The notes under the pieces were generated by a model, which did no database searches, was not told the origin of the DNA, and worked only from the letters and a program-made list of their open reading frames with translations. From assembly GCA_964474085.1 (NCBI GenBank), contig CAYYRJ010000002.1:70110-134109 (forward strand): a stretch of DNA of 64,000 nucleotides, written 5' to 3'. The position numbers and the translations under genes were made by a program. Shown here in pieces: positions 20,942 through 64,000 of this stretch. Numbering within the stretch: the stretch's first letter is position 1; the number at the start of each line of letters is the position of its first letter. Source of the stretch: an uncultured Planctomycetales bacterium. Lineage in GTDB: Bacteria; Omnitrophota; Gorgyraeia; Zapsychrales; JANLHA01.

Positions 20942-21055
20942 CGCAAAATCTTTCTGTTTGACATTTTCCCTACCTTAACTTATTATCCAATCATCCCCAG
21001 CTATTACCCCAATGGCTATTTAAAAATATTGTTTAACCTTCCGATCGAGGTGCCA

Positions 21056-27000: not shown

Positions 27001-27652
27001 TCCCTTTGGTTTTGCCGGAGGGTTAGATGATCGCGACACCAATTTAGTCCACTTTGGATTCCGCGACTACGATCCCTTAACCGGCCGCTGGACGGCGAAA
27101 GATCCGATTGGGTTCGGCGGGGGTGATGTCGATCTATACGGTTATGTCGAAAGCGATCCGATCAATTTTGTTGATCCTTATGGATTGTATTGGTTAAAAG
27201 ATTGGTCTGATTTCTTTGGAGGATTTGGCGATTTTATTACTTTTGGTGGAACTGGATGGTTGCGAGACCAGTGGGGGTATGGCGGTTTCGTTGATCCATG
27301 CTCGGGTTGGTATACCGGCGGAGAAATTGCTGGATTTGGGGCATCTGTCGCTTTGGGCGCTGCTTGGGGTTTAGAAGCGGCAGGAACGAAAGGAGCGGGT
27401 AAAGAGTTCTCTCATTGGATTCCAAAAAGACTTGGGGGTCCAAATTCACTATTGAATGGGAACTATGTCTCGAAGAGTACCCATGCGTTATCTGATCCAT
27501 ATCGGTATAGGTTTATGTCTAAGGCTTGGAAAGCAAGTAACCCAATTTATAACCCACTACAAAGACAATGGATTCGGTTGCCTAATTGGATTAAAGGTGC
27601 AGGTGCTGGTGCTGGATATGGGACTGGATCTAATGCAATAAGGGAGAAGTGA
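21056..27652 (+). CDS. giant secreted teneurin-like YD-repeat / RHS polymorphic toxin (2,198 aa from ATG): signal peptide, 2 FN3-like, Ig-like, transthyretin/CarbopepD_reg-like, Ca-binding Asp-rich, NHL repeats, YD repeats, RHS core, variable C-terminal toxin
   Basis: FN3-like repeats (GKVTLAWDKVPDATSYTIKYGTTS, twice). CarbopepD_reg-like segment (IRGEVKDKNNLPLSQVSVFIDG...TDTSGQFSL). Six or more NHL repeats (e.g. YSPVDVAVDQSGNIYIADYVNHRIRKID). Many YD repeats (YTYDAVGRTT, YEYDANGNMT...). RHS core ends ...DPxGL at 27188, followed by a Gly-rich unique tail. The ATG at 21056 with GAGGTG upstream is preferred over the track TTG at 21029. Confidence 0.9.
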   Translation: MSKFFSFTTKFFLTLFFVCTLTLFSPQLQATAVLPAPTLKSAIGGIGKVTLAWDKVPDATSYTIKYGTTSNMIDSTVTGDVNTFAVSGLANSTIYYFVVVAKNATSTSAYSRQMSARTQLPPPFLSGASGGIGKVVLTWEKVPGATSYIVKYGTTSLNYPTVLSVADVNTFTVTGLANDTSYYFVVAAKNSLSTSINSRQMTGKTWGPTAALPKPTVNFSANPTAIKSGESTKLTWTSTNATSLYIDNAIGAASDHGTLSVFPKVTTTYTITATGALGSANAKVTVYVTATPTAQPQGTFGSQYKDIIPQDATVKEYAVKRFAIIRGEVKDKNNLPLSQVSVFIDGHPEYGTTKTDTSGQFSLPVDLNGTLNISFEKQGFIPSHRQIYVAPNDVAIVETLTLLSEDTKATEVALNGDAKNIVVHQSTPVSDVSGTRSANVVITGDNKAYAVDEHGKDMFELSKLNVRATEFATPASMPAALPPTSAFTYCVELKADGVDRVRFKDPVVVYVDNFLGFNVGEIVPVGYYDRDRGVWVASENGRVVKLLDTNGDTKVDALDSTGDGVADDLNKNGDYSDEVKGLNDPAKYTPGKTFWRVSLTHFTPWDFNWPFWPEKSAIGPNAKGKPNADQQKNEGDDCDKATNSFVNCRSRIYHEDIDIPGTDLTLHYASNRVPAYKTVITVPASGDTVPSSLQKIVVRLDIAGRTFEQTLPTLANQTAEFRWDGLDYFGHRVDSTTAHITTEFVYKAFYVGFGATGERAPAFGEPGVTTTTVRAREEFIFSTERSILVHNQAETRERLAQGWTLSNHHFMSARDVSTLYKGNGDVVSNDGLNIITTIAGTGEAGYSGDGGPATEAKLYSPVDVAVDQSGNIYIADYVNHRIRKIDLNGIITTIAGTGVEGYSGDGGPATAAGMYPSGLAVDLNGNVYITDNQRIRKIDTNGIITTIAGTGVYGFSGDGGPATLATFKSPTGITVDAIGNIYISDTRNQRVRKINTDGIISTIATTPSKYNKSYPTMITSDQKGNIYFTVYGSTVLGIPVYCEIYKIDINGVNTLVAGDYVSGFSGDGGPAKSALLQNPNGIAVDKFGNIYFADTGNLRTRKIDIDGIITTVAGTGERGYSGDGGSATAAKINRPYGVAVDQGGNIYIADSGNNRIRKITLATAFAPADPGDMTFAEEGFGYTFSLDGKHKQTVDLDTKKILEQFGYDPSGRLISSTDSFDNKVTIERNASGVPTAIVSPDGVRTNLTIDAKNHLTQITYPDGKSYNFEYTPGGLLTKETEPKGNFFTHTFDANGRITDVLDQEGGHEKFGRKVDVNTGDVTTTVTSGEGDVVTYVDQTASTGALTSTSSVSGVTKPTTFSRSSDELTSKITSPDLTVSDLSFDLDPEYKFKYLKSQTITTPSGLKAQATFARTYIDTNSDGKKDLITRSASLNSKSTTLTHDVLTSTFKATSPLGRSMTTVYDPTTLLTSKVSVPELFDTTYTYDLKGRVKTVQTSTRTMSLDYDLNGNVESITDPRGNRTSYTYDAVGRTTKVHRPDSTEVHFEYDANGNMTVLTNPSSQNHGYIYNAVNLPTSYAPPISPATQYVYDKERRLKEIDFPSGKKIKNVYTGVLLTQTQTPEGNVDYTYLPSGQLAKVTKGSESLNLSYDGSLLKTVTSAGTLGQTLSLTYNTDFKVTGLTYAGAINSFGYDNDGLLTSSGRFTIGRNAQNGLPTAVAGGVLNLTRTFNGFAELSTQTQTVNGSAAALFGLTYNPNGQIATKSETVAGVTSNYAYTYDALGRLTKVEKDGVLVEEYGYAGADPLGTRTYEMNTLRGIAGRSLTYNAEDQLLSVGSATYQYDTDGFLSKKTDGAAITTYNYSSAGELLSASLPDGRTLEYVYDPQGRRIAKKINGVLVEKYLWAGLTQLLAVYDGADSLVMRFEYSDARVPNAMVKSGTTYYLSYDQVGSLRAVYDATGALVKRIDYDSFGNILVDTNPAFSLPFGFAGGLDDRDTNLVHFGFRDYDPLTGRWTAKDPIGFGGGDVDLYGYVESDPINFVDPYGLYWLKDWSDFFGGFGDFITFGGTGWLRDQWGYGGFVDPCSGWYTGGEIAGFGASVALGAAWGLEAAGTKGAGKEFSHWIPKRLGGPNSLLNGNYVSKSTHALSDPYRYRFMSKAWKASNPIYNPLQRQWIRLPNWIKGAGAGAGYGTGSNAIREK

Positions 27653-33660: not shown

Positions 33661-33864
33661 TTATTATACCCACCCTATAGAAGTAGAGTAATCGGGACCG
33701 TGGTAGACTCTAAATTAACTGAACCGTCTTTTCATAAGAATTGGCTCCTTTTGTTTGAGCTCAATTCTACACAATTTGGTCAATTTTGTTAACTGGGGTC
33801 AGTATACAGCTATTACCCCAATGGCTATTTAAAAATATTGTTTAACCTTCCGCTCGAGGTGCCA

Positions 33865-36800
33865 ATGTCTAGATTTTTTAGTTTTACAACAAAATTCTTC
33901 CTGACAACATTTTTTGTTTCTGCTGTTGTGTGTTTTTCGTCAAAACTCGAAGCCGTTGTCCCTGCATTGTCATCACCGACTTTATCGACCGTCACCGCTG
34001 GCGACGCGCAGGTTATCCTTAAGTGGACCTCTGTTACAGATGCGACCAATTATATCGTCCGCTATGGGACGGCTTCAGGTGTTTTTACAAAAGCCGTTAA
34101 TGCCGGCAATGTCACGACCTTTACGGTCAGCGGATTAGCGAATGGGACGGCGTATTATTTTGTTGTCGCCGCAAGCAATGCCTCCGGTAAAAGTGCCAAC
34201 TCTTCTCAAAAAAGCGCCCGACCACAAATTTCGGCGCCGGTTTTAAATTCAGCGATGGGCGGCGTTGGTCAGGTTGTTTTAAATTGGAACAGTGTCCCGA
34301 CGGCAACGAATTATTCGGTCAAATACGGGACCGCCTGGGGAAAATACACAAAAGTTGTGGACGTCGGCGATGTCACGACATTTACTTTGAGTGGTTTATC
34401 CAATGGCACAATGTACTTTTTTGTTGTTTCGGCAAACAATGCCGCTAGCAGCAGTTCAAACTCGGCCCAAAAAATTGCGACACCCCGACTGCCCACCCCC
34501 ACTCTTGTCAGCGTAACCCCTGGGAATATGAAAGCGACTTTGACATGGAGCGGTGTTGTTGGTGCCGAAAGTTATCTGGTCAAATGGAAAACTCCGTCAG
34601 ACCAGTATGCAAAAGCGATGAATATCGGGAATGTGAATTCCTATACGATCAAAGGGTTAAGCAATGGGACGACGTATTATTTTACGGTTGCCGCCGCCGT
34701 TGGAACATTAAGCGTCAGTCTCGATGCGCCGGGCATCAATGCGACACCGAGAATATCTACAGCGACCGCACCTGCGGCGCCGACTTTAAATTCTCCGACG
34801 GTTGGTAATGCCCAAGTGACATTAAACTGGAATGTCCCCAACAATAATGGTTCACCGATTACAGGGTACGATATTCAATACGGGACTCTAGAGAGCGGTT
34901 TGTTTAACAATATCTGGAATGATGACAATGTCCCCGGCGCTGTCATTGGAGGATTGACGAATGGGACCAATTATCAGTTTAGGGTCATTGCCCGCAATGC
35001 GATGGGTAGCAGTTTACCTTCTTCTGCTGTTAGCGCTCAACCTTTGATCTTAGGAACGCCAGCCCAAATGCAATATCCCTCTTTCGGCGCAACAATTTAT
35101 CTTCCTAGCGTCAATTTTTCATGGAACGCTGGTATCGGAGCCGATGCCTACAAAGTTATCGTCGGAACAAGCGTTGGAGCAAATAATTTGGCAGACAGCG
35201 GCGAACTAACCGATTTAAATTACACTGTTTTTAATGTTCCTCTTACCGGCGTCCCCATTTATGTGCGCCTCTCAAGTTTGATTAACGGACTATGGGTTTC
35301 ACAAGAATATCAATATTTAACTTCCGCCAATCGCGTCATTAAGTTTCAAGGGTCAGGTTCAGGCGTCAAAGAATATTATGACCCTTCGGGCTGGTGGCAA
35401 AAGGTGACGTTTAATCTCACCACGGATTTTGATGTTGTTGCACAAAATCCGCGGCTTAACGCCGACGGGATTCATGTCGACCATGATTTGGTGCGAAAAA
35501 CAGGGACACTTCATTTTTGGGGAACCGCCCAGGATTACTTTAACGGCGCATTAAACGAATTCAGTTTTGACCGTTCGCAAAACATCGATATCCAAACCTT
35601 GCAAGGGATTTTTTCATACTCTAAAACACGAATGGATGACGTTTATATTTCGTTTGACGTCTCCCCTTCCTCAACCCTGCCTTATGTCGTAAATCTCCAA
35701 TATGCGGCATTTATCCCGATTGTCCGAGCCAGCATGGTTATGCCTTACCCATGGAATTTAGGATACATCGACAATGCCACGTACGATATTCCTGCAACCG
35801 ACGATTTTCAAAGGCCCTGCGATATTTCAATCGATCTACAAAAGGGTGATCTCGTACCCGGAGACACGGTATCCGTCTATGCTTCAACCTTGGTCAACCC
35901 TTCAGATTCTTTACAATGGCAAATCCTGCCTGGCAAAGACAGCGACGCGCGCGCGAATATCAGCCCATCGGGCGCTAACGCCCAAATGGCGACCATCAGT
36001 GATATCCGAGGAAAAGGAGAACTGGTTTTAAAAATTTCAAACCCCTCGATTGCCGGCTGTCAAAAAGAAATTCCCTTAAATGTCGGTTGCGGCTGTGCCA
36101 GCAGTGAAAACATGTGCACCTTAGACGGGAAATATAATTTGTCGAGCATAGACGTTACCCTCGATCTAGGCCGGACTAAACGAGGAAAATCCGCTGGAAG
36201 CCTTCAGTTAAAGACGGACAAAATTTCGGCCGATAATTCGACGCCTAAAAAACTTAAAGTTTTTGCCGTTGAGAGCACAACAGAAACGCTCTACAGCAGC
36301 AACAATATTTTACGGCAAGTTGTAACGCCGGAAATTTTTGTAGATATTACCCCTGTCGATGCCTACCGCTACGACATCAAATACTATGCTCTAACCGACA
36401 AAGGTACTAAGGTCGGCGGCTTTTATCAAATCGGCGGCGCGGCCATACCTCTAAAAACTTGGCGAATCGAAAACCCTGACCTTTCCTCGACGATTTATAA
36501 TCGTTTAAAAATCACCGAAACCCAAAATGCAATTGTCAAAACGTATGAATACATTTGGAACCAAAACTTAGGCCAATGGCAGCTTAAAACCGGCGATGGT
36601 CTACAAAATGAAAACCTCGTTGAACAAACCATCAACGGCAATCGTGTTGTGACGCGGACATTGAGTGATAGCGCCGGAGTCGTTGCGTCCAAAACCCAGA
36701 CGACATTTAAAGACATTGCCGGGCCCGATGGGATTTCGCAAAATATTATTAAAACAATCGAAGACCCTGCCGGGATCGCCTTAACGACGAACAGCACGTG

Positions 36801-39800
36801 GGACGATGGCGGCAGCGGGCGTTTGTTGTCACAAGTTTTTCCTGACGGCTCTTGGGTCCGATACGAATACGATGCGACTGGCCGAACGACCATGGAAGTC
36901 ACATCGTGGCTGGATTCCCCCGTTGGGACACCTGCAAATTTAGCACGGGCGATTTATTATGATTATTCTCTACAGGATGCTTCGGACGCAAATTTGCCGC
37001 AAGACATTCGCAAACCGCGGCTGATCACCGAAAAGATTCTTGACAAAGTTGTTTCTAAAACGTTTTATGTCTATCAAAAATCCGCCGACAATTATTTGAC
37101 GAACATTATCGAGCGCGCATCGACTCCCGGCGCTGCCTATGGCGCCGCCGCAAATCAGCGGACAAAAACTGTCATGTTTCCTTATGTTTTTGGGTCCGTT
37201 GAAGCATGGCGAGTCCAGAGCGTCACGACTCCCGACGGAAAAATGGACACCTACACCTACAGTTTGGGAACATATACGCCCAACAGCAACCCCAAACTTC
37301 CCGGGACATTTACCGCAGGAGCAGGAACTGATGAACGGACCTCGATTATTCACGGGCTTGCTTCCTCTGCCTTTGGTATTGCCAATAAATCGACGGCAGA
37401 ACAGCACATCAGCAATTTTAAAGGAGAAAAATTATTAGAACTGCGCTACGTCTATAACGGCACAAGCCCGCAATTAGTCGCAACCACCCATTGGCGCTAT
37501 GATGAGTACGGCCATGTCACCAATGTTTATAACTCTGACGGGACAGAAAGCGTAAGCCTGTGGGGATGCTGTAACGCAAAATCCGAAACCGATGTCAACG
37601 GTATCGCGCGTCAATATGTCTATGATGCGCTTGACCGCATTCAAACCGAAATCAAGCTCGCCAGCCCCCACGATATCACAACCAGCTACACCTACGACGG
37701 GGCCGGCCGCCAAAAAACACAAACGATCAGCTCTAACGGTTTGAGCCTTTTGACAAACACGACGTATGACGCCGCCGGACGGCTTAAGACCCAAACCAAT
37801 CAGGCCGGCCATATCAGCACACAAAGCTACAGCACGGACAATCGCACGACAACACTCACACGTCCCGGGGGCGCAACCGAAATTACCACCCAATACATCG
37901 ACGGACAAACCAAAAACATAACCGGCACGGGGAATCTCGCGCAGTTCTATACTTATGGGGTCAACCCAGACGGCTCACGCTGGACGCAGATTAATTTTGC
38001 CAGCGAGACTTCGCCTAACTGGGAAAAGACGACCGTTGACCTTTTGGGCCGCACGATTAAAGTTGAAAAACCAGGATATAATTTATCGACGCTGGTAAGT
38101 GAATATTTTTATAATAATCTCGGACAATTGGTCCGCACAAAAACTCCCGGGCAAGCGGACACTTTATATGAATACGATGCCGTAGGCCAGCTTACCCGAA
38201 GCGGTCTTGACCGCAATGCCAATGGACTTTTGGATTTAAGTTCGATTGATCGGATTACTGATACTGACACTTCTTTTGCATTAATTGGTGGTAACTGGTG
38301 GCAGCAAACTTTACAAAAAGTTTATGCCGCCGACTTTAATACAACAGCGACAACGACGGATACCCAACGCACTCGCCTTAACGGATTGGGAACCGCAAAC
38401 TTAACAGAGGAGTCTGTCACAATCGATATTCATGGGAATCAAACGATTTCGCAAACTTATATTGATCGATTGGCCAAAACCACAACGCGCGTCGTTGATG
38501 ACCCGGATTCAAACATCAACCAAAGCACCGTGACGACCAACGGACTTTTGACGTCCTCCAAAAGTAAAACAGGCACAACCGTTTCGTATGGCTATGACAG
38601 CCTCGAACGCCAAACCGCTGTGACAGACCCTCGGACCGGGACGACAATAACCCAATACAATCCTACAACCGGTCAAGTTGATTGGGTCGAAGACCCCGAA
38701 GGCCGACGGACAAGTTTTTCTTATGACCCGCTTTCGGGACAAAAAATAAGCGAAACAAACGCATTAGGTAAAGTGACCCGTTTTGCTTACAGCACCCGCA
38801 ACGAGCTGACCCACATTTGGGGCGATGTTCCCTACCCTGTGCGCTACCTCTTTGATAATTATGGACGGCTATCGCAGATGCATACTTGGCGCAGTGGAAC
38901 ATCGTGGAATGCGGCGGCTTTTCCAGTAAGTATGGACAGCCAAAAAGATGTCACGACGTGGAACTATCAGGAAGCAACCGGCCTTCTGACCAGCAAAACA
39001 GACGCCGCCGGTCAAAGCACTTCCTATACGTACACGCCCGAAGGCAAACTCAAAACACGCACATGGGCTCGGCTTAACAGCGGAAGTCCAACGGTGACAA
39101 CCTACAACTATACGACCGATACCGGGGAGTTAACCGGCATTGATTACTCGAATTTGACGCCTGATGTGACTTTTGCCTATGATCGCTTGGGTCGGCAAAA
39201 GACTATCACCGACGCTTTAGGTAATCGCACTTTTGGCTACAATACAAAACTCCAACCCGAAACCGAAAACATTACCGGCTTGTATAACAAACTGCTGACC
39301 CGAAGTTACGCGGCCAGCGGTGTTTTGGGACGCTTAAACGGATTTAATACAGGCGCCGGCTACAGCGTTACTTACGGCTATGATGCCGTCGGGCGTTTCA
39401 ATTCTGTCGGCTGGAATGTCAGCGGACAAACGGGCAGCGGCACATATAATTTTGTCCCTAACTCCGACTTATTGCAAAGTTTGACAACCCCGTCGGGGTT
39501 AACGACAAGCTTAAGCTATGAACCTCACCGCGACTTAAAGACGCAGGTCAAAAACCAGTTTGGCGCGGCGACGGTTTCGCAGTACGATTACACTTATGAT
39601 GCGCTGGGCCAAAGAACGTCGGTCAAAAACAGCGGGACGGCTTTCAGCAGTCCGGCGTTTAATAAATTTGCTTATAACTTTCGCAATGAATTAAGCGAAT
39701 CCTCGCGGTATCTGGGCGCGGACGTTTCTCTGCTGACAAGTCCTGTCTTGGGAGAATACCGGCATTTTGATTATGACCCCATCGGCAATCGCGGCAATAT

Positions 39801-41085
39801 CACCGCCGCGGGCAATGCCGGAAGCTACACGACCAACAATCGCAATCAATATCTGATCGCCGCTCTTCCTACCGGCGGGACCAATACATTCACGCATGAC
39901 TCCGACGGGAATCTAACCGAAATTACAGGCGCACAAAACATCGTTTACGCCTACGATGCCGAAAACCGGCTGGTCAGCGCAACTCCCAAAACGCCGGCGG
40001 TCAATGACAAAAAAATCGAGCTTTCCTACGACTATCAAGGCCGGCGGGTGCGAAAGGTTGTTTCGCAGTACAATGGCAGTGCCTGGATAATAGCGGCAGA
40101 CAAGCGTTTTGTTTATGACGGCTGGAACATGATCGAAGAGCAAACCGTTACGCCGGCCTCTTCACGGTTTTATGTTTGGGGATTGGATCTTTCGCAGTCT
40201 TTGCAGGGCGCAGGCGGCATCGGTGGCTTGTTGGCCACAGTCAATGGGACAGCGACGGATCATTTCCTATACGATGGCAACGGAAACGTCGGACAGTTGA
40301 TTAATTCCGTTGGCGGATCACTTGACGCGCAGTATGAATACGACCCGTACGGAAATTTAGTTGCCTCAAACGGATCACTTAGCGCAAGCAATCCATTTCG
40401 TTTTAGCACAAAGTATCTAGATACCGAAACCGGCCTCTACTACTATGGCTATCGCTACTACGATCCCAAAGACGGCAGATGGACGAGTAGAGATCCGATT
40501 GAGGAGGATGGTGGATTAAATCTTTATGCGTTTGTCCATAATGATGCTGTTGATTCTTTTGATTTATATGGACTTTATCGCGATTGGTTGCCTATCTTGG
40601 CTGACCGCGGACGGAAAGTTCACGCGAAATTAAAAGAATACGGTGACACATATCGAAAAGACCTTAGATGGGACATGTCTTTAAAAGAACTAGGCATCAT
40701 TGATGCGCTTGATAAACCTGATATCTTAGATACCGATGACCGTCTTATTTGGGAACTTAAGCCCGGTTCTCATCGAGCTCCAATTTTTTATAAAAGAGAT
40801 GATGCTCAAATGCAAAGATATATGGACAAAACCTGTTATCGATTAGGTGATCCCAATTTAATATTTTCACAAAAAACTTATATCGGAGATGTCAGTGATA
40901 CTTGGGGGACATGGAATATTTATGTTTCTCCCGGACGGCTTGGCTTTCTCTATTATGATGTAACACGCAAACAACAAAAAAGGCGAGCAGGCAACTCTGA
41001 CTGGAGCGGCAACCCAACAGAGAATTTTATGCCACCGATAATGAACCCTGTGTTACCCTTGGGCCCAACTCCAATAATATTCTAA
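33865..41085 (+). CDS. second giant secreted YD-repeat / RHS polymorphic toxin (2,406 aa from ATG): signal peptide, about 5 FN3-like, unassigned beta-rich region, YD repeats, RHS core, PD-ExK-like C-terminal tip
   Basis: The N-terminus and about 60 nt of upstream leader are almost identical to toxin 1 (MSRFFSFTTKFFLT...). Repeated W..V.DATNY.V.YGT FN3-like units. YD repeats (YEYDATGRTT, YTYDGAGRQKT, YDAAGRLKT...). RHS core ...YYDPKDGRWTSRDPI...DLYGL (ends 40575). The tail has KPDILDTDDRLIWELKPG. Confidence 0.9.
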   Translation: MSRFFSFTTKFFLTTFFVSAVVCFSSKLEAVVPALSSPTLSTVTAGDAQVILKWTSVTDATNYIVRYGTASGVFTKAVNAGNVTTFTVSGLANGTAYYFVVAASNASGKSANSSQKSARPQISAPVLNSAMGGVGQVVLNWNSVPTATNYSVKYGTAWGKYTKVVDVGDVTTFTLSGLSNGTMYFFVVSANNAASSSSNSAQKIATPRLPTPTLVSVTPGNMKATLTWSGVVGAESYLVKWKTPSDQYAKAMNIGNVNSYTIKGLSNGTTYYFTVAAAVGTLSVSLDAPGINATPRISTATAPAAPTLNSPTVGNAQVTLNWNVPNNNGSPITGYDIQYGTLESGLFNNIWNDDNVPGAVIGGLTNGTNYQFRVIARNAMGSSLPSSAVSAQPLILGTPAQMQYPSFGATIYLPSVNFSWNAGIGADAYKVIVGTSVGANNLADSGELTDLNYTVFNVPLTGVPIYVRLSSLINGLWVSQEYQYLTSANRVIKFQGSGSGVKEYYDPSGWWQKVTFNLTTDFDVVAQNPRLNADGIHVDHDLVRKTGTLHFWGTAQDYFNGALNEFSFDRSQNIDIQTLQGIFSYSKTRMDDVYISFDVSPSSTLPYVVNLQYAAFIPIVRASMVMPYPWNLGYIDNATYDIPATDDFQRPCDISIDLQKGDLVPGDTVSVYASTLVNPSDSLQWQILPGKDSDARANISPSGANAQMATISDIRGKGELVLKISNPSIAGCQKEIPLNVGCGCASSENMCTLDGKYNLSSIDVTLDLGRTKRGKSAGSLQLKTDKISADNSTPKKLKVFAVESTTETLYSSNNILRQVVTPEIFVDITPVDAYRYDIKYYALTDKGTKVGGFYQIGGAAIPLKTWRIENPDLSSTIYNRLKITETQNAIVKTYEYIWNQNLGQWQLKTGDGLQNENLVEQTINGNRVVTRTLSDSAGVVASKTQTTFKDIAGPDGISQNIIKTIEDPAGIALTTNSTWDDGGSGRLLSQVFPDGSWVRYEYDATGRTTMEVTSWLDSPVGTPANLARAIYYDYSLQDASDANLPQDIRKPRLITEKILDKVVSKTFYVYQKSADNYLTNIIERASTPGAAYGAAANQRTKTVMFPYVFGSVEAWRVQSVTTPDGKMDTYTYSLGTYTPNSNPKLPGTFTAGAGTDERTSIIHGLASSAFGIANKSTAEQHISNFKGEKLLELRYVYNGTSPQLVATTHWRYDEYGHVTNVYNSDGTESVSLWGCCNAKSETDVNGIARQYVYDALDRIQTEIKLASPHDITTSYTYDGAGRQKTQTISSNGLSLLTNTTYDAAGRLKTQTNQAGHISTQSYSTDNRTTTLTRPGGATEITTQYIDGQTKNITGTGNLAQFYTYGVNPDGSRWTQINFASETSPNWEKTTVDLLGRTIKVEKPGYNLSTLVSEYFYNNLGQLVRTKTPGQADTLYEYDAVGQLTRSGLDRNANGLLDLSSIDRITDTDTSFALIGGNWWQQTLQKVYAADFNTTATTTDTQRTRLNGLGTANLTEESVTIDIHGNQTISQTYIDRLAKTTTRVVDDPDSNINQSTVTTNGLLTSSKSKTGTTVSYGYDSLERQTAVTDPRTGTTITQYNPTTGQVDWVEDPEGRRTSFSYDPLSGQKISETNALGKVTRFAYSTRNELTHIWGDVPYPVRYLFDNYGRLSQMHTWRSGTSWNAAAFPVSMDSQKDVTTWNYQEATGLLTSKTDAAGQSTSYTYTPEGKLKTRTWARLNSGSPTVTTYNYTTDTGELTGIDYSNLTPDVTFAYDRLGRQKTITDALGNRTFGYNTKLQPETENITGLYNKLLTRSYAASGVLGRLNGFNTGAGYSVTYGYDAVGRFNSVGWNVSGQTGSGTYNFVPNSDLLQSLTTPSGLTTSLSYEPHRDLKTQVKNQFGAATVSQYDYTYDALGQRTSVKNSGTAFSSPAFNKFAYNFRNELSESSRYLGADVSLLTSPVLGEYRHFDYDPIGNRGNITAAGNAGSYTTNNRNQYLIAALPTGGTNTFTHDSDGNLTEITGAQNIVYAYDAENRLVSATPKTPAVNDKKIELSYDYQGRRVRKVVSQYNGSAWIIAADKRFVYDGWNMIEEQTVTPASSRFYVWGLDLSQSLQGAGGIGGLLATVNGTATDHFLYDGNGNVGQLINSVGGSLDAQYEYDPYGNLVASNGSLSASNPFRFSTKYLDTETGLYYYGYRYYDPKDGRWTSRDPIEEDGGLNLYAFVHNDAVDSFDLYGLYRDWLPILADRGRKVHAKLKEYGDTYRKDLRWDMSLKELGIIDALDKPDILDTDDRLIWELKPGSHRAPIFYKRDDAQMQRYMDKTCYRLGDPNLIFSQKTYIGDVSDTWGTWNIYVSPGRLGFLYYDVTRKQQKRRAGNSDWSGNPTENFMPPIMNPVLPLGPTPIIF

Positions 41086-51815: not shown

Positions 51816-52778
51816 TTAAATGAATTGATATTTTGTTAATGCCTTATCGCCTGTCTTTTTTAAGAGCTTGACTTTAACACCCTCTGCCAAATCACGACTT
51901 GCGGTAGGATTTGAAATCCCCGCGTTAGCCTGCAAATAATCACTTCGACTAAAAACAGCTTTTTTAAATCTAGCTTTTGCGTTCTGCAAGCGTGTCGCTG
52001 CAGATGGCACAACAGGATGAAATTCTTTGATAAAATTAACCACAGCTTCGTAAATAGCCTCAAGCATAAAATTGATAAATTCTGTCGCTGTTCCATTTTG
52101 GTCTGACTTTTGTAAAGCTTGGTAATATTGCGCCTGACGTTGACGGACTACAGACTCAATCGGAATATATTCAAAAATACCGCGATAGTTGTAAAGAATA
52201 ACCGATTGCCATAAACGACCAAGACGCCCGTTGCCGTCCATAAAGGGGTGAATACATTCGAATTCATAATGAAACACGCTAGACTTTATCAGTGGATGCA
52301 AATCTTTTTCCTCTCGTAAAAAAAGGAAAAGCTCGTTGACTAGCGTCGGGACTTGATCATGCGGGGGAGCCATATGAACAATCTTCTCGCCTGCCTTAAC
52401 GCCGACATTCTTAGTGCGCAGCTTTCCTGCCTGCGTCAGTAAATCAGTCATTAAGATATTGTGTGCTTCAAGCAAAGATTTTAGACTCATCGCATCATAT
52501 TGCGTGAGTTTTTCGTAAGCTTTGATCGTATTCTTTACTTCGAGGATATCTTTTGCGGGGCCCAAAACCTTTTTATTATTTATAATGTCTGTAACCTGCT
52601 CAATGGTCAAAGTATTGCCTTCGATGGCGAGACTAGATTGGATTGTGCGGATACGGTTATGCTTTCGCAATTCTGGTTGCGGAATCGGCTGTTGAAGCCC
52701 TTCGATCTTTCCTAATAATAACGTGATCTCGGCACAAAGATTTAAAATCGCACTTGTAATCTGAAATGGTGGTTTCAT
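51816..52778 (-). CDS. Fic/DOC-family protein (AMPylator-type fold)
   Basis: Fic motif HPFMDGNGRLGRL. Confidence 0.8.
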   Translation of the reverse strand: MKPPFQITSAILNLCAEITLLLGKIEGLQQPIPQPELRKHNRIRTIQSSLAIEGNTLTIEQVTDIINNKKVLGPAKDILEVKNTIKAYEKLTQYDAMSLKSLLEAHNILMTDLLTQAGKLRTKNVGVKAGEKIVHMAPPHDQVPTLVNELFLFLREEKDLHPLIKSSVFHYEFECIHPFMDGNGRLGRLWQSVILYNYRGIFEYIPIESVVRQRQAQYYQALQKSDQNGTATEFINFMLEAIYEAVVNFIKEFHPVVPSAATRLQNAKARFKKAVFSRSDYLQANAGISNPTASRDLAEGVKVKLLKKTGDKALTKYQFI

Positions 52779-52848
52779 ACAACGACCTCCCCTTGTAGCA
52801 CTACAATGATAGTATCATATGATAGTATCACTTGCAAATTCGCCTCGT

Positions 52849-52865
52849 ATCTTAATCACTTTTGC
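52849..52865. repeat. 17-bp direct repeat ATCTTAATCACTTTTGC (copy 1; copy 2 at 54874-54890)
   Basis: Exact 17-mer shared by two intergenic sites bracketing the small ORF and the second AbiE pair. Confidence 0.7.
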
Positions 52866-52901
52866 TTAGGATACCAGCGCTATTAAATTTCTTGAATAAG
52901 C

Positions 52902-53225
52902 TTACTTACCTGCTTTGGCATCCGGATCCCACATATCCCGATAGTCGCGCACATACTCTACGGCAGCATTTTGATCAATGTCATAATAATATCTGCAGAG
53001 TTTTCTATACAGCGCAAGCATACTCTGATCGCAACAAAAACCAAGCATCAAATCAAGGGTGTTTTCTATCCGGCGTTTGTCTCGACAACGGGAACTGACA
53101 ATTTCATCAACCTCACCTTCATATATAATCACAGCTTTTTTAATCAAAGCCTGAAAACTCTTTGCTAATTGCACTATTCCCTGATTTTTATTGCGTTTTA
53201 TATTCTTATTCTCTAAATTTTTCAT
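52902..53225 (-). CDS. hypothetical protein (107 aa)
   Basis: ORF only, basic N-terminus. No recognisable motif. Confidence 0.3.
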   Translation of the reverse strand: MKNLENKNIKRNKNQGIVQLAKSFQALIKKAVIIYEGEVDEIVSSRCRDKRRIENTLDLMLGFCCDQSMLALYRKLCRYYYDIDQNAAVEYVRDYRDMWDPDAKAGK

Positions 53226-53272
53226 CGGCTTATTGTTCCGTTTAAGTACGGAATTGAGATTGAAATTCTACA

Positions 53273-54162
53273 TTAGATACTGTTGATGTGCTCTTCAATG
53301 ACCCGCAATTCTTCTATGACGCGTTCAAACGTTGGAGACTCTTCAAAAAACATTTGTTGCATCTGACGATAATCTTTTTTTAATTGGCTTATTTGATCAT
53401 CGCGAGGCAATAGCCGTAAAGTTCCCGGCTTTGCAGTGTCATAATGCGCCCAGTTCGCTTTAAAAAATAAAGTTTTATGCTCCGCAACAGACTTAAGCAA
53501 TGGGATGCTTTTCAAAGCGCGTTTATAAATAGGCGAATCCGTCATCGCGTATATATCGTAATAATGCCGGGACATCCGTAGTGGTACATTTTTCTCAGAC
53601 GGATAATGATATATCATGTGCAAAATCGTCGCTTTCTCCCAAAAAGTCCGCTCTGCGGCTAAAACTCGCACGCAAGCCCCTTTGATGACCATCTGCTTTG
53701 AAACATTCGCGATATACGGAAAAATGGTTGCGGTTTCGACCGGCCAATGATCTGATCGCGCACCAAATTCAATTTTGACTGATGAGCGTACATAGCTCTG
53801 CACATTACTTGTCAGGGCATATTGCTTTCTTCTTTATTCGGCTCAATCTCTTTGGAATTCAACAAAAAAGGCCGCTCTATTGAAATGTCAATGTCCTCCG
53901 AAAAACGTTTGATCACGTTATAACACTTTGAGAGGGACGTCCCTCCTTTAAAGGTTAAATGCTCGCCTATTTGCGATAATGAAAAAAGAATTTTGAGTAT
54001 CCAGCAAATCCAAAAATCCTTTTCAACCAATTGCGGCAAGATACCAAGTTTACTGGCCATCGTATCGAAATAAGGAATTTTCTCTGAGACAGGCAAGACT
54101 GCAAATCGATCCATTATTCCACCATTCTTTTGAATATTGCGCCGATCCAGGCCGGAGCGCAT
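53273..54162 (-). pseudogene. second AbiEii/AbiGii-family nucleotidyltransferase, split into two frames at about 53803-53812
   Basis: The N-terminal ORF (53812-54162) contains [26 protein letters not shown]. The C-terminal ORF (53273-53803) continues the family in another frame. Confidence 0.6.
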
Positions 54163-54737
54163 GTAATATCCTTAAGAAGTTGTTTTTTGTCGGCATCACT
54201 CAACCGCGCTTTAAGCTTATCGACGATATCATCATCCACATTAACTTTTCCTAAATGGCGCAAAGCCTGAATGACTAAACCACTAATACGGCCCGCGGCC
54301 GCCATATTCTTGGGGGTCGTTCTTTTAAAGATGATGCGCTGGTTATATATAGTCAACTTCCGATTAGAACCATCCGTCAAAAAAATAATCTTGGCGGGAA
54401 CCTGATCGGTCAAACCTAGAAGATTGGCGGCATAAGCACCCGAGGGCTGAAGCCTTAACTTATGTTGTCCGGCAAACGCCTTACCAATTTGCTCATAATT
54501 TGGTACCAGATCTCCAAGCGTAGGATGGCGCTTAGGGTAGTCATAAAGTCCCAGAGAAAGCCGACGGATAGTCCCCTGCTTTGTTAACCTCTCAAGGGCT
54601 TTCCTCACGGCAGAATGACTCCCAAGGTCAAAAAATTGGTTTGGCGTAAATACCCAACCCCTCCCATGACCGTATATTCTACTAACAACAATATCATCAG
54701 TATGTTGCATACGATAGCCTCTACTATCCTGTCGCAA
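54114..54737 (-). CDS. AbiEi-family antitoxin (second copy)
   Basis: ...[40 protein letters not shown] is the typical AbiEi N-terminal domain. Confidence 0.6.
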
Positions 54738-59668: not shown

Positions 59669-60783
59669 ATCTTGGAAACAACGGTCTTTCCCCACGCAAT
59701 GCCTAGTTGTTCAACAAATTTATAAAAAAACCACGAAATTAAATATGTCGGAACGATTGTTATACAAAATAATATCAAGAATCTCGATGCTCCATGTGCC
59801 TGTAAATAAGACTCGTTACGGATGAGCCATGCGGCCAAAGGGAGGACGACCAAAAGGTGCAATAGATACACCGAATAAGAGACATTCGCCATAAACGTCG
59901 CAATCCTACTGCCGAGAATAGCTTTTAAAAAATTCAAGGGACGAGAAAGACCCACTCGATAATTTTGCTCATCATAAAATAGAATTCCAAACATCACGCA
60001 GGCGACCAGCAAAATTATCTTTTCTTGTAAAAAACCTGAGATGACTATTGCGAATAATGCCAAAATCTTTGCTTTAGAATGCTGTTTAGAAATGTAATCA
60101 GCGTGGGCTGTGGCTAGCAAAATTCCAATAAAAAATAAATGAACCTTTAAAGGTAAAAAAGAAGGCATCGGGAATGCATATTTTAAAAAGAACTTGCTCA
60201 CAACGAAGCACAACAATGATATCAAGATTGTTGGTAAAATGTATGCATGCTTTCTTAAAAATAACATCAAAAATGGAAAAATAAAATAAAATTGCATTTC
60301 AAGACCAATACTCCAGTCAGGGAGCGGGGTCGTAAAAGCGAAATTTGGTAAAAATCCAAAAATAAATGTTACGTGCGTAAATATGTTCGCGAAACTGTGA
60401 TCTATATAACGATCCACGGGCGTATGGGACCCTGGGAATACTCCAGCAATCGATTGACGACATTCTCCCAGGAAGCTACCAAACAACAAAGCAATCGTAA
60501 AAAGAACGTAATATAACGGCGCAATACGAAAAAACCGACGAATATAAAACTTAAACCAGGTCCGAGAATGCGCCCACGGCTCTGTAGCCTCACGTTTAAA
60601 ATAATGAAAAACCATCAGAAACCCTGACATAACCATAAAGATGTCGACGGCAACTTTTCCTTTTGACAAAATGGGTAACGAATACCCAGACAAAATAAGA
60701 CAATGACTTGCCAACACCCATAAAGCTGCAAATCCACGAAAACCATCTAAAAAAAGTAAGTGATTTTTATCGCCCATATTCAT
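59665..60783 (-). CDS. acyltransferase family 3 (OafA-like membrane O-acyltransferase)
   Basis: ...HLLFLDGFRGFAALWVLASHC..., a polytopic membrane protein. Confidence 0.75.
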   Translation of the reverse strand: MNMGDKNHLLFLDGFRGFAALWVLASHCLILSGYSLPILSKGKVAVDIFMVMSGFLMVFHYFKREATEPWAHSRTWFKFYIRRFFRIAPLYYVLFTIALLFGSFLGECRQSIAGVFPGSHTPVDRYIDHSFANIFTHVTFIFGFLPNFAFTTPLPDWSIGLEMQFYFIFPFLMLFLRKHAYILPTILISLLCFVVSKFFLKYAFPMPSFLPLKVHLFFIGILLATAHADYISKQHSKAKILALFAIVISGFLQEKIILLVACVMFGILFYDEQNYRVGLSRPLNFLKAILGSRIATFMANVSYSVYLLHLLVVLPLAAWLIRNESYLQAHGASRFLILFCITIVPTYLISWFFYKFVEQLGIAWGKTVVSKI

Positions 60784-60790
60784 TAAATTA

Positions 60791-61315
60791 TTATTTTCGA
60801 AGGCGCATGACTCTCGCCGGATTGCCACCGACGATAGCATATTCTGGAACATCTTTTGTTACGACAGCACCTGCGGCTAAAATAGCCCCTTTCCCAACGC
60901 TAACTCCAGGCAAGATTATAACGCGGGCCCCAATCCAAACATCATCACTGATACTAACAGGTTTTTCATTTTGAAATCCCTGCTGGCACATCGGGATATC
61001 GATACGATCAAAACGATGATTTTTAGTAATAATAATCACCTCTTCCCCCATCATAACCGATTTGCCAATAGTAATTTTTCCTAGCAAACGTGAGCGCTCC
61101 CCGATGGATGAATCATCCCCAATACTAATACTCCGGCCAGAATGAAAAAACGCACACGGTTCGACTCGAACATTATTACCGCAGTAACCAAATAAGGGCT
61201 TGCAAATGATTGAACGGACTTTCCCAAAGACAGCACACCCGCGCAAATACGACGATGGAAAATATTGGGCCAAGCCGTAGTATAAAAATAAGCAAATGAG
61301 ACGGATAAGTAGCAT
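60791..61315 (-). CDS. hexapeptide-repeat (LbH) sugar O-acetyltransferase, WcaF/MAT-like
   Basis: ...[49 protein letters not shown]. Confidence 0.8.
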
Positions 61316-61336
61316 ATGATTTTTTAACTCCCCCTC

Positions 61337-61380
61337 GCCCCCTCTTTATGGTTATAAATAACCACAAGAAAAAGAGGGGG
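61337..61380. terminator. strong GC hairpin (ccccctcttt ... aaagaggggg with palindromic loop) between MmpB and the acetyltransferase
   Basis: 10-bp perfect stem read directly. No clean U-tract on the minus strand, so its role is uncertain. Confidence 0.35.
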
Positions 61381-61404
61381 AAATACACACTTTTTATTTT
61401 AATT

Positions 61405-62001
61405 TTAGGGCCTTGAATGGCGTACAAATTCCAATAACTTTAAATAGTCCCCTTTGTCAGCCTCTCTAAGTGCAGTCAGATAAAGATTTCTAACGTGATT
61501 TTTGTCCACGATGCTCTCAATATCCCAACTTAATGGTTCTTTTTTTAATAAATCTTGCAAAATGATATCTGTCATCAATCGCGCATGCCGGCCATTACCG
61601 TTGGCAAATAAATGGATCGAAACCAATCGATGATGAAAACGCACCGCGATCTCATCCGCAGAGTAGGTATTGTTTTCGATCCAATACTGAGTATCTTTTA
61701 ATAATGTATGCAATTGGACTGAGATTTGCAGTGAATCGGCGCCGATATTTTTATTAGAGCGCCTTAACGATCCGGCCCAACGCCACACGTTACCAAACAT
61801 TCTTTGATGCAAGTCTTTAATAAATTTTTCAGTTAAAATATCTTTTTTTCGACTGGTGCTAAACCATTGGATCGCTTGACTGATATTGTCTTGCTCAAAA
61901 CGATTGAGTTCTGCTCGAGTGCTGATGTGTTTAAGTTTAAGGCCTTCCATTTCATCTGGATCCAATGGGGTTGCGCCTTCTGGATCTTTAAAATCTTTCA
62001 T
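61405..62001 (-). CDS. Fic-family protein of the 'mobile mystery protein B' type
   Basis: Fic motif HLFANGNGRHARL, about 200 aa. Immediately downstream of an XRE-HTH partner. Confidence 0.7.
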   Translation of the reverse strand: MKDFKDPEGATPLDPDEMEGLKLKHISTRAELNRFEQDNISQAIQWFSTSRKKDILTEKFIKDLHQRMFGNVWRWAGSLRRSNKNIGADSLQISVQLHTLLKDTQYWIENNTYSADEIAVRFHHRLVSIHLFANGNGRHARLMTDIILQDLLKKEPLSWDIESIVDKNHVRNLYLTALREADKGDYLKLLEFVRHSRP

Positions 62002-62005
62002 GGCT

Positions 62006-62473
62006 TTAATCCCAGAGCTCTTTGGGCTGTTCAATTAATATCCTTTGTGTCATATCGTCGAGCGCTTTTTTTTGCTCATTTTCTGAAAGTCGTTGTTGTT
62101 CCAAATTCATCGTATTATTAAGCCGCTTAAGCCGCTTTAAGGCAAGCTGTCTAGCCTGCTTTGTGACGATCTCTTCTAATGTGTCACCATCAATGGGGAC
62201 AAAACCATAAACAAAATGCATGTTCAAACTTTTGGCGATCTTTTGCAAAGACGATAGTTTTAAGTTTCCATCTTTTTCGGCGTTTTCTAATCGCGAAATT
62301 CTTGACTGATCAATTCCAACTTTTTTTCCTAGTTGACTCGCAGATAATCCTAAAGCTTCGCGGATTATTTTGATCCACCCTTGCTCTGGAATCCCAGAAG
62401 ATAATAGGCCTTTTAAAAATACTAACTTTTTATCTAGTTGATCGCGAATGACTTTCTTATCCCAATGATTCAA
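62006..62473 (-). CDS. HTH (XRE-type) protein of the 'mobile mystery protein A' type
   Basis: ...LGLSASQLGKKVGIDQSRISRLENAEKDGNLKLSSLQKIAKSL... Confidence 0.65.
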   Translation of the reverse strand: MNHWDKKVIRDQLDKKLVFLKGLLSSGIPEQGWIKIIREALGLSASQLGKKVGIDQSRISRLENAEKDGNLKLSSLQKIAKSLNMHFVYGFVPIDGDTLEEIVTKQARQLALKRLKRLNNTMNLEQQRLSENEQKKALDDMTQRILIEQPKELWD

Positions 62474-62609
62474 TTTTATGCTCCTTATAGCATTAACATT
62501 GACTTACAATATGCTAAATATATCATTTATGGTTAGTTTGTCAATAGTAATTTATAAGATACCACCTCGCGTAAAAAGAGAGGAAAAACAAAAGACGTGT
62601 CCATCACCT

Positions 62610-63641
62610 TTAGTTATACTCCATCAAAACCGCAAGGCCCTCATCAAGCAGGCGTTGGTTGAGATATTCACCTCTCTGGGCGACGATTGCGGCATCCACG
62701 TCTTTGGATCCGGTAAAAACATCCGCCAAATAACGACCATATTTTTCTTGTTTATATGTCTTAATAACAACCGTCGGATTGGTGTCGACGATCTGTTGCA
62801 CAAAATTCTTGGCTTTGCGACCCAAGGCGCAAGTGATCTCCGGGGCGTCGATGCCGCGCAAACGCATCACATGGGTGATATATGTCCTAAAGCCCATATT
62901 GACGATCGCCTCTAATGTATCACCGTCGATGACGCGAGTGACTTTGGCTTTATAAGTATAGAGCCGGTCTGTTTCGTAGGGAGAAATCTTAGCGGTGTAG
63001 TCCTCGCCCTCTTTGACGGCCCTAACCATGCGGCCTGCTCTCAAACTCTCTGTGTCGGGTAAACGCACGTCACGGTCAATGCCAAATCCAAGATCCAACA
63101 GTAATCGCTTTTTTTCGAGCTGTTCGGGCGTAGCCTGCTTGACCCGATAATGATAAAGTTGGCCCCGGACCATATGCAGGATACCGTTTTGTGCGATAGG
63201 TTGGACCGGTGTCAGTGTGCCGCGGGCTTCACGCGCGATAATACGAAAATCTTTGTTGCTGATGCTTTCTTTGACGGCTTTCTGCTCAAGTTGACGACGA
63301 GTCACAGAATCGTCTATCCGCAGGAGGTCTTGATAATGCGACCAGCTTAAACCCGTCTTGGGAAAGACCGGATAAAAACGGTAGAGTTTGATCGTGCTGT
63401 AAAAAAACGTTTGTGGTCGGCCAAACTGCCGTGCCAAATCCGCGACAATACGGGCATTGCGCGAGCTGATGCCCTGATCAAGGTCAACGGTCTCAACGAT
63501 CGCGCGGCCGATGTTCCATGCCGTTCGCAAGACTTCAGTTTTGAAGGCTTGCTGGGCGCGCTGCGTCCCCTGCTGGATCTGTCGGGCGACGGCAGTAAAA
63601 AGTTTTTTGGTTTCAGTTGCGTTTATGATATCCATGGTCAT
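62610..63641 (-). CDS. fusion protein: N-terminal DUF1016/YhcG-like region plus C-terminal staphylococcal-nuclease (SNase/thermonuclease) domain
   Basis: C-terminus ...VIDGDTLEAIV...MRLRGIDAPE...KYGRYLADV carries the SNase motifs. The N-terminal 200 aa are helical with no confident assignment. Confidence 0.55.
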   Translation of the reverse strand: MTMDIINATETKKLFTAVARQIQQGTQRAQQAFKTEVLRTAWNIGRAIVETVDLDQGISSRNARIVADLARQFGRPQTFFYSTIKLYRFYPVFPKTGLSWSHYQDLLRIDDSVTRRQLEQKAVKESISNKDFRIIAREARGTLTPVQPIAQNGILHMVRGQLYHYRVKQATPEQLEKKRLLLDLGFGIDRDVRLPDTESLRAGRMVRAVKEGEDYTAKISPYETDRLYTYKAKVTRVIDGDTLEAIVNMGFRTYITHVMRLRGIDAPEITCALGRKAKNFVQQIVDTNPTVVIKTYKQEKYGRYLADVFTGSKDVDAAIVAQRGEYLNQRLLDEGLAVLMEYN

Positions 63642-63663
63642 ATAAAAATTTTTGTTATTCTGT

Positions 63664-64000
63664 TTATTTACGCATTTTGATCACTCTTGCCGGATTGCCG
63701 CCGACGATTGCATATTCGCAAACGTCTTTTGTTACGACAGCACCTGCGGCGATGATTGCACCCTTTCCAACGGTAACACCCGGCAGGATGATTGCCCGCA
63801 CACCGATCCAAACATCATCACAAATTGTAACGGGTTGTTCGTCCTTAAAACCCTGTTCAAGCATCGGAATATCCAGCCGGTCAAATTTATGGTTCTGTGT
63901 CAAAATAACAACATCCGGCCCCATCATCACATTATTCCCGATAATAACTCTGCCGGACAAAAAAGCATTGATGCCTATCCCCGAATTGTCCCCGATAGTT
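63664..64000 (-). CDS. second hexapeptide-repeat sugar O-acetyltransferase (paralog of 60791-61315); N-terminus lies beyond the window end
   Basis: ...[49 protein letters not shown]. The ORF continues to the window edge. Confidence 0.75.

Follow-up and report, generated by a model that had tools for sequence, protein, structure and literature searches.

Two described groups of genes come closest to those analyzed here. Mobile mystery proteins A and B (MmpA and MmpB) are treated in comparative studies as a toxin-antitoxin pair of the Fic/Doc type (PMC8649781, PMC3936711). In Fic/Doc modules (VbhT-VbhA, FicT-FicA, and Doc-Phd), the gene for a Fic-fold enzyme lies beside the gene for a small partner. 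YhcG/DUF1016 proteins (PF17761 plus PF06250; PDC-S02 among the PADLOC candidate-defense classes) include YhcG, described as uncharacterized, and their stand-alone genes have no conserved partner and occur as paralogs within genomes (PMC1189080). We compared with these systems a 64,000-nucleotide (nt) stretch of contig CAYYRJ010000002.1, referred to as the window, in which mmpA, mmpB, and a nuclease gene stand side by side on the minus strand; all coordinates are those of the window. The host is an uncultured bacterium; the genome nearest to it is a metagenome-assembled one labeled Planctomycetales, but protein relatives come mostly from Omnitrophota.

The original prediction, made from the DNA sequence, had joined these three genes into one island between two paralogous acetyltransferase genes, with the nuclease as a possible effector. 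All open reading frames (ORFs) that it named exist on the minus strand in the window ORF listing. We favor another arrangement, with a probability of about 0.72: two independent accessory modules, mmpAB and the nuclease gene, embedded in a strain-variable polysaccharide-synthesis locus. The main value of the analysis is corrective, as it turns a plausible three-gene "defense island" into a known pair of Fic and helix-turn-helix (HTH) genes plus an unrelated nuclease. Neither mmpAB nor the nuclease is very surprising, and the whole is fairly ordinary.

mmpAB as an insertion polymorphism

Two relatives carry the nuclease gene at the corresponding site without mmpAB, based on BLASTN and junction alignment. 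In L001, a 2.5-kb contig, the nuclease is 96% identical to the window protein, and in L002, from a metagenome-assembled genome (MAG) labeled Planctomycetales, it is 91% identical. In both, 22 nt separate the end of a hexapeptide acetyltransferase gene from the nuclease start, and the stem-loop TCCCCCTCTTTTTCTTGTGGTTATTTATAACCATAAAGAGGGGG comes immediately after the nuclease stop codon; the nuclease thus follows an acetyltransferase in relatives that have no mmpAB there, which speaks against a single three-gene island. The empty site reads TAAAGGT/TCCCCCTC (the slash marks the insertion point), with a boundary that is ambiguous by 1 nt (T). In the window, 1,224 bp lie between the nuclease stop codon and the hairpin, and only the mmpA promoter, mmpA, and mmpB are found inside. 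The occupied allele is also present in two other assemblies (L082 and L083, one from ENA and one from Logan), making an assembly artifact unlikely. Two short contigs reached through MmpB added no sequence past the end of the window.

Insertion in the window lineage is the parsimonious reading, because the insert is missing from both relatives, of which L001 is the nearer to the window. The same order of relatedness (96% versus 91%) counts against the alternative that mmpAB was ancestral at this site and was precisely deleted in the L001 and L002 lineages, which would need two deletions with identical ends, or one in an ancestor that excludes the window lineage. Such a history draws some support from the GC content of the cassette (37%), which is near that of the neighboring polysaccharide genes (38 to 39%), and from the fact that only two relatives are available, yet there are no flanking repeats to drive precise excision. 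We consider ancestral presence followed by deletion improbable.

The ends of the insert have no terminal inverted repeats and no direct repeats beyond chance, the junction homology or target duplication is at most 1 nt, and there is no recombinase or transposase gene inside. An insertion sequence or transposon was rejected on the lack of terminal inverted repeats, target-site duplication, and a transposase gene. Integron cassettes carry attC at the 3' end and follow a G/TT (G/TTRRRY) crossover rule; an integron cassette was rejected because the 23 nt after the mmpB stop hold no imperfect palindrome and the left junction reads GG/TGATGG. We also rejected a trans-mobilized element of the IS200/IS605 type, as no subterminal or attC-like hairpin lies inside the insert. 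No conserved cassette ends were found in the other mmpAB loci, except for the operator region common to L084. The original prediction had proposed insertion at, or duplication around, a conserved gene; insertion holds for mmpAB only, and the acetyltransferases are not a duplication made by insertion (see below). Together, the occupied and empty sites fix the exact ends of mmpAB, free of repeats and of a recombinase, and these ends and the ATGCTA-N4-TAGCAT operators described below are concrete handles on the mobility and function of the family.

We surveyed co-location of the two families in 177 other loci, comprising 80 nuclease loci with 8-kb flanks and 97 mmpB loci from metagenomes and viral contigs. 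The original prediction depended on the three genes occurring together elsewhere, and this was essentially not the case: the families were adjacent in none of the 177 loci and lay 1.7 to 3.5 kb apart in two. L045 is the only one of the 80 nuclease loci with mmpAB, 3.4 kb off and separated by the gene for a 1,056-aa CARDB protein. L084 is the only one of the 97 mmpB loci with a nuclease relative (33% identity), and an AAA_14/DUF4143 gene lies between.

Base composition also separates the modules. The nuclease gene has a GC content of 50.3% (55.8% at third codon positions), whereas the window averages 42.7%, the nuclease neighbors 37 to 39%, and the mmpAB cassette 37.4%. The high GC of the nuclease gene suggests an older horizontal acquisition, common to L001 and L002.

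A single defense or addiction system, in which the nuclease would act as effector alongside MmpA and MmpB, is suggested by the adjacency and common orientation of the three genes in the window, by the matches of both families to PADLOC candidate-defense models (PDC-S02 and PDC-S04), and by their proximity in L045 and L084. However, the genes that intervene in those two loci, the difference in GC (50% versus 37%), the promoter and operators that mmpAB has of its own, and the closest relatives, whose nuclease gene occupies this site with no mmpAB beside it, argue against it. The trio is already largely refuted, and we give it hardly any weight compared with two independent modules.

At L084 (9-7240), an Eco57I-type methylase, an FRG-domain protein, mmpAB, an AAA_14/DUF4143 ATPase, and a DUF1016_N-SNase gene stand in a row. 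This locus resembles a typical variable or defense-type island, and nowhere else did we see the two families so close together.

The mmpAB pair and its operators

By sequence, mmpAB in the window is a further member of the known mobile mystery protein A/B family, as originally predicted. MmpB matches TIGR02613 over model positions 1 to 186 of 186 with 262.5 bits (curated cutoff, 124.4) and the Pfam Fic domain with 46 bits. MmpA matches TIGR02612 with 148.1 bits (curated cutoff, 122.6) and Pfam HTH_3 with 43.8 bits. The most likely start of MmpB is the ATG at 62001 (198 aa) rather than the TTG at 62034, as its homologs all begin with M-x-x-F-x-Y-P-x-GATPL. Like other members, the window copy has the order A-B, with the mmpB start codon 4 nt past the mmpA stop, and it stands as a solitary unit. 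We found no essential difference from the family; the window copy adds a clean pair of occupied and empty sites.

The pairing and the family are widely conserved. In 88 of the 97 mmpB loci, mmpA is directly upstream of mmpB, with gaps of -3 to +42 nt. The MmpB family has more than 7,900 matches at an E value of 1e-10 or below and is unusually conserved, with 60 to 70% identity across Omnitrophota, Nitrospirota, Chlamydiota, Desulfovibrionales, and Minisyncoccia; the nearest relatives of the window copy are 68 to 69% identical. Contexts are varied, with homologs on 253 plasmid records (annotated, where an annotation is present, as "mobile mystery protein B") and on 17 IMG/VR viral contigs, and the neighbors of mmpAB are diverse.

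The Fic motif announced for MmpB, HLFANGNGRHARL, lies at residues 130 to 142 (61576-61614). Its core HLFANGNGRHAR (HxFxNGNGRHAR) shows no variation among 25 homologs that span several phyla, including an Asn at position 5, the usual place of Asp or Glu. Canonical Fic AMP-transferases have Asp or Glu at this position. The likeness to Fic/Doc modules lies in a Fic-fold enzyme gene beside a partner gene and in operators over the promoter, which suggest autoregulation; the differences lie in the motif and in the partner. MmpA is encoded upstream of MmpB and is a 155-aa XRE-type HTH protein rather than a small peptide of the VbhA or FicA type. It has a conserved C-terminal extension (M122-x-L-E125-x-Q127 in 61 homologs), in which the canonical inhibitory [S/T]xxxE[G/N] of the VbhTA and FicTA partners is not conserved: Ser/Thr at -4 and Gly/Asn at +1 are variable in these 61 homologs. 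Among solved structures, none gave more than 33 bits to MmpB, the best being FICD and NmFic, and MmpB falls far short of the cutoffs of the VbhT and NmFic models. MmpB matches the PADLOC class PDC-S04.

The best promoter-like site between 60700 and 64000 is that of mmpA, with 11 of 12 consensus matches and an extended -10. An inverted repeat, TAGCAT...ATGCTA, had been noted in this promoter, and it is present, as TAGCAT (62516-62511) and ATGCTA (62493-62488), with 6-nt arms and a 17-nt spacer. The 6-bp repeat alone is unremarkable; its arms are really the inner halves of two 16-bp palindromes, O1 and O2. The motif ATGCTA-N4-TAGCAT with at most one mismatch has two matches in the 64 kb, both in the mmpA leader, where 0.09 would be expected. 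In front of mmpA, the palindrome has exact copies in L084 (two) and L091 and degenerate ones in L087 and L093; a 16-mer identical to O2 precedes mmpA in L084. More distant mmpA loci have other palindromes in the same position. As sequence elements placed over a promoter, the palindromes support autoregulation by MmpA, which would bind them.

Taken together, these features suggest how the pair may work. mmpAB would be a self-contained 1.2-kb cassette that encodes an XRE-HTH protein and a Fic-fold enzyme, carries a promoter and two palindromic operators for them, and came to be inserted between the nuclease stop codon and the resident hairpin. The most likely mechanism is repression of the operon by MmpA bound at the two ATGCTA-N4-TAGCAT sites, one on the -10 box and the other on the ribosome-binding site. 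To judge from Fic and Doc toxin-antitoxin pairs, MmpA would probably keep MmpB inactive as well; once released, MmpB may transfer a nucleotide-derived group to a cellular target and so cause growth arrest in the style of addiction or abortive infection.

The DUF1016_N-SNase nuclease

The 343-aa protein is, by sequence comparison, a member of an already catalogued full-length family, mainly from Omnitrophota, and a domain-swap relative of YhcG. Pfam places an SNase (staphylococcal nuclease) domain at residues 259 to 341 and DUF1016_N (PF17761; 36 bits, cutoff 32.8) at residues 18 to 131, both above their gathering scores. The C-terminal nuclease and the DUF1016-like label of the original prediction are thus borne out, while its view of the N-terminal domain as unassigned has to be revised. 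Residues 7 to 143 align with E. coli YhcG 8 to 184 only (hhalign probability, 97.6%) and match the PDC-S02 models (E = 2.5e-14, PADLOC). The YhcG alignment stops at residue 143, and there is no match to PF06250 (PD-(D/E)XK) in the protein; a small beta domain and an SNase domain take the place of the PD-(D/E)XK domain found in YhcG.

An AlphaFold model (pLDDT 87) agrees with this division into helical (residues 8 to 139), small beta (about 160 to 220), and SNase-fold (225 to 343) parts. The SNase fold superposes on Staphylococcus aureus nuclease (PF00565) with a TM score of 0.70 and a root mean square deviation (rmsd) of about 2 Å (Foldseek). Loss of the catalytic Arg, Asp, or Glu would have undermined the nuclease assignment, and D241, R260, D265, E268, and R303 are all present, invariant or nearly so, and align with S. 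aureus D21, R35, D40, E43, and R87. Judged by its residues, with all the Ca-binding and catalytic ones of the S. aureus type, the SNase domain is catalytically complete, and the protein is a predicted nuclease. Structural matches of the other two parts are to the ParB/Noc DNA-binding domain for the helical part (weak; E about 0.01, TM up to 0.67) and to S1/OB folds for the beta part (weak); one nuclease homolog has a weak Pfam match to HTH_ParB. The phage endonuclease family phrog_452 covers residues 177 to 340 (E = 7e-29). Mean pairwise identity among homologs is 54% in the SNase domain and 32 to 33% in the N-terminal parts.

An exact look-up of the nuclease sequence gave no record, but we found 334 homologs; among the 120 listed, nearly all are full length and most come from Omnitrophota MAGs. 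Where names are given, they are "thermonuclease family protein" or "DUF1016 N-terminal domain-containing protein." A search with residues 1 to 222 against 1.84 billion representatives (50% clustering) gave 699 matches, mostly of about 340 aa, indicating that the three-part architecture is stable. One MAG, CAZWOH01, has at least five diverged paralogs on different contigs (L002, L011, L025, L027, and L047), with 29 to 91% identity to the window protein, and several other genomes carry two. In Leptospira, full-length relatives (about 25% identity) are found on 24 plasmid records, with up to three matching places per plasmid. One of these (L181; Leptospira weilii plasmid pD13, NZ_CP040845.1, 39274-40272) lies amid RHS and polymorphic-toxin genes.

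Neighbor clustering for the nuclease family revealed no recurrent partner. Housekeeping genes make up most of the immediate neighbors, and a few toxin-antitoxin or AAA_14 genes occur among them. The stand-alone genes, the lack of a conserved partner, and the within-genome paralogs are shared with YhcG; a difference from YhcG/DUF1016 is that no type I restriction-modification association was seen in the nuclease loci examined.

We suggest that the 343-aa protein is a stand-alone cytoplasmic nuclease that would work without mmpAB, in which a conserved SNase domain is tethered to faster-evolving YhcG-type helical and beta parts that most likely select the DNA substrate. By analogy, its role may be defense against foreign DNA, as proposed but unproven for the YhcG-type PDC-S02 genes, or a selfish function.

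A selfish function would make the nuclease a homing-type or otherwise mobile gene rather than an enzyme of benefit to the host. This would suit genomes with several diverged paralogs, which sit in unrelated places and often amid housekeeping genes, as well as the relatives on Leptospira plasmids, a GC content 7 points over the window mean, and a catalytic part closest to the phage family phrog_452. In addition, a unit made of the last 16 nt of the acetyltransferase gene, the 22-nt spacer, the nuclease gene, and the hairpin is common to three genomes in which the acetyltransferase body differs. Nevertheless, we observed no presence/absence polymorphism of the nuclease gene and saw neither an intein or intron context nor flanking repeats, and SNase domains are not known to serve as homing endonucleases. 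We regard a selfish nuclease as unlikely.

SNase enzymes are classically secreted, and the nuclease could instead be an exported DNase for feeding or predation, which would fit host-dependent Omnitrophota-like bacteria; the window also encodes two giant RHS/YD-repeat proteins. The protein differs from classical secreted SNases by a 220-residue N-terminal extension and the lack of a signal peptide. Its N terminus, MTMDIINATETKKLFTAVARQIQQGT, has no hydrophobic signal segment and forms a long helix in the model, and this helix belongs to the domain common to cytoplasmic YhcG-type proteins. An exported enzyme is thus very improbable, and we keep to a cytoplasmic one.

As a tentative and rather doubtful extension, which we hold to be possible in its entirety but would not bet on, the DUF1016_N/beta/SNase proteins may be an unrecognized class of stand-alone target-directed nucleases, with a role in defense or a selfish one, in which the PD-(D/E)XK domain of YhcG was swapped for a phage-type SNase and whose paralogs expanded in Omnitrophota and neighboring phyla; separately, mmpAB would move in a repeat-free manner to the point just past a stop codon and before the resident hairpin. 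The DUF1016_N-SNase family is in any case tractable, with apparently intact catalytic residues and a fast-evolving putative recognition part, and its members are frequent in poorly known phyla and occur on plasmids of pathogenic Leptospira as well.

Several points weigh against the reading of two functional modules and the activities proposed for them. For mmpAB, the direction of change, insertion versus loss, rests on parsimony with two relatives, and the L001 contig ends inside the hairpin. Repression, toxicity, neutralization, and chemistry we infer, and MmpA does not have the inhibitory motif of canonical Fic antitoxins. In the single test that we found for the class, a PDC-S04 gene in its native host gave no defense (10.1101/2024.12.20.629700). 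For the nuclease, no defense-island signal was evident around its loci, with no formal enrichment test made, and the structural matches of the N-terminal part are weak, with E values of about 0.01. Likewise in the single test that we found, a PDC-S02 representative tried against phages T4, T5, and T7 was not among the protective candidates (10.1101/2024.09.26.614923).

Acetyltransferases, hairpin, and surrounding locus

The locus is bounded by two hexapeptide-repeat acetyltransferase genes, AT1 and AT2 (Table 1). They are paralogous, and AT2 runs beyond position 64000, as the original prediction had it; their identity, given there as about 75%, is a little lower, at 68% for protein over the 111 visible residues and 71% for DNA. 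The AT2 stop codon lies 22 nt upstream of the nuclease start, the same spacing as in L001 and L002. The acetyltransferase of L001 is 98% identical to AT2, and that of L002 is 95% identical to AT1. When L002 (7883-8000) is aligned with the window (60745-60887 and 63620-63760), its acetyltransferase gene changes from AT1 type to AT2 type about 16 nt before the stop codon. This switch is a recombination crossover in a conserved stretch, and it shows that the unit of acetyltransferase 3' end, 22-nt spacer, nuclease gene, and hairpin is common to the three genomes, with the acetyltransferase body exchanged. AT1 and AT2 are old, diverged paralogs or alleles, and recombination between them takes place close to the conserved 3' ends.

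Table 1. Features of the mmpAB and nuclease locus in window coordinates
Feature	Coordinates	Strand	Description
AT1, hexapeptide-repeat acetyltransferase	60791..61315	-	174 aa; first gene after hairpin; paralog of AT2
Resident stem-loop	61338..61380	-	10-bp outer stem CCCCCTCTTT/AAAGAGGGGG plus inner stem
mmpAB cassette	61382..62605	-	1,224-bp insertion versus empty site; BLASTN and junction alignment
mmpB	61405..62001	-	198-aa Fic-domain protein; TIGR02613, Pfam Fic
mmpA	62006..62473	-	155-aa XRE-type HTH protein; TIGR02612, HTH_3
Operator O2, ATGCTAtaagGAGCAT	62478..62493		1 mismatch to ATGCTA-N4-TAGCAT; overlaps ribosome-binding site AAGGAG
Operator O1, ATGATAtattTAGCAT	62511..62526		1 mismatch to ATGCTA-N4-TAGCAT; overlaps -10 box
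mmpA promoter, sigma-70-like	62517..62544	-	TTGACA, 16 nt, TG-n-TATATT; consensus match only
Nuclease	62610..63641	-	343 aa; DUF1016_N, small beta domain, and SNase domain
SNase domain of nuclease	62613..62969	-	Residues 225-343
Small beta domain of nuclease	62976..63194	-	Residues about 150-222
DUF1016_N helical domain of nuclease	63213..63623	-	Residues 7-143
AT2, hexapeptide-repeat acetyltransferase	63664..64000	-	3' part only; continues past window end

The resident hairpin has a folding energy of -28.2 kcal/mol (z = -4.3) and is unique in the window. It stands directly after the nuclease stop in L001 and L002 and after mmpB in the window, and since mmpAB has no terminator of its own, the resident hairpin would now close the cassette. 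That it acts as a terminator is assumed, as it lacks a T-run and the terminator scan passed it over. We considered and rejected a REP-like repeat, as the window has one copy and the 3' half recurs only in L002 and L011, which belong to the same MAG. This 3' half with its tail, AAAGAGGGGGnnAGGGGGAG (window 61328-61347; L002 9090-9127), recurs in L011 at 4736-4773, and in L002 it is preceded by a shorter hairpin, CCCCCTCTTTTTTAAAGAGGGGG. The 3' half may be a lineage-specific repeated palindromic element.

After AT1 follow genes for Acyl_transf_3, Wzx, pyruvyl transferase, and glycosyltransferase (GT4 and GT2) proteins, which mark a polysaccharide locus. Polysaccharide loci are a class known for cassette exchange. 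Between glycosyltransferase genes of the same locus lies a second toxin-antitoxin-like gene cluster (51816-54737). It has a DUF6088 protein (54114-54737), an AbiEii toxin that is apparently split (ORFs 53812-54162 and 53273-53803), and a second Fic-domain protein of 320 aa (51816-52778) with 25% identity to MmpB. The two giant ORFs of the window (21029-27652, 2,207 aa; 33838-41085, 2,415 aa) have RHS/YD-repeat, teneurin-like NHL, and fibronectin type III domains and encode polymorphic-toxin-like surface proteins.

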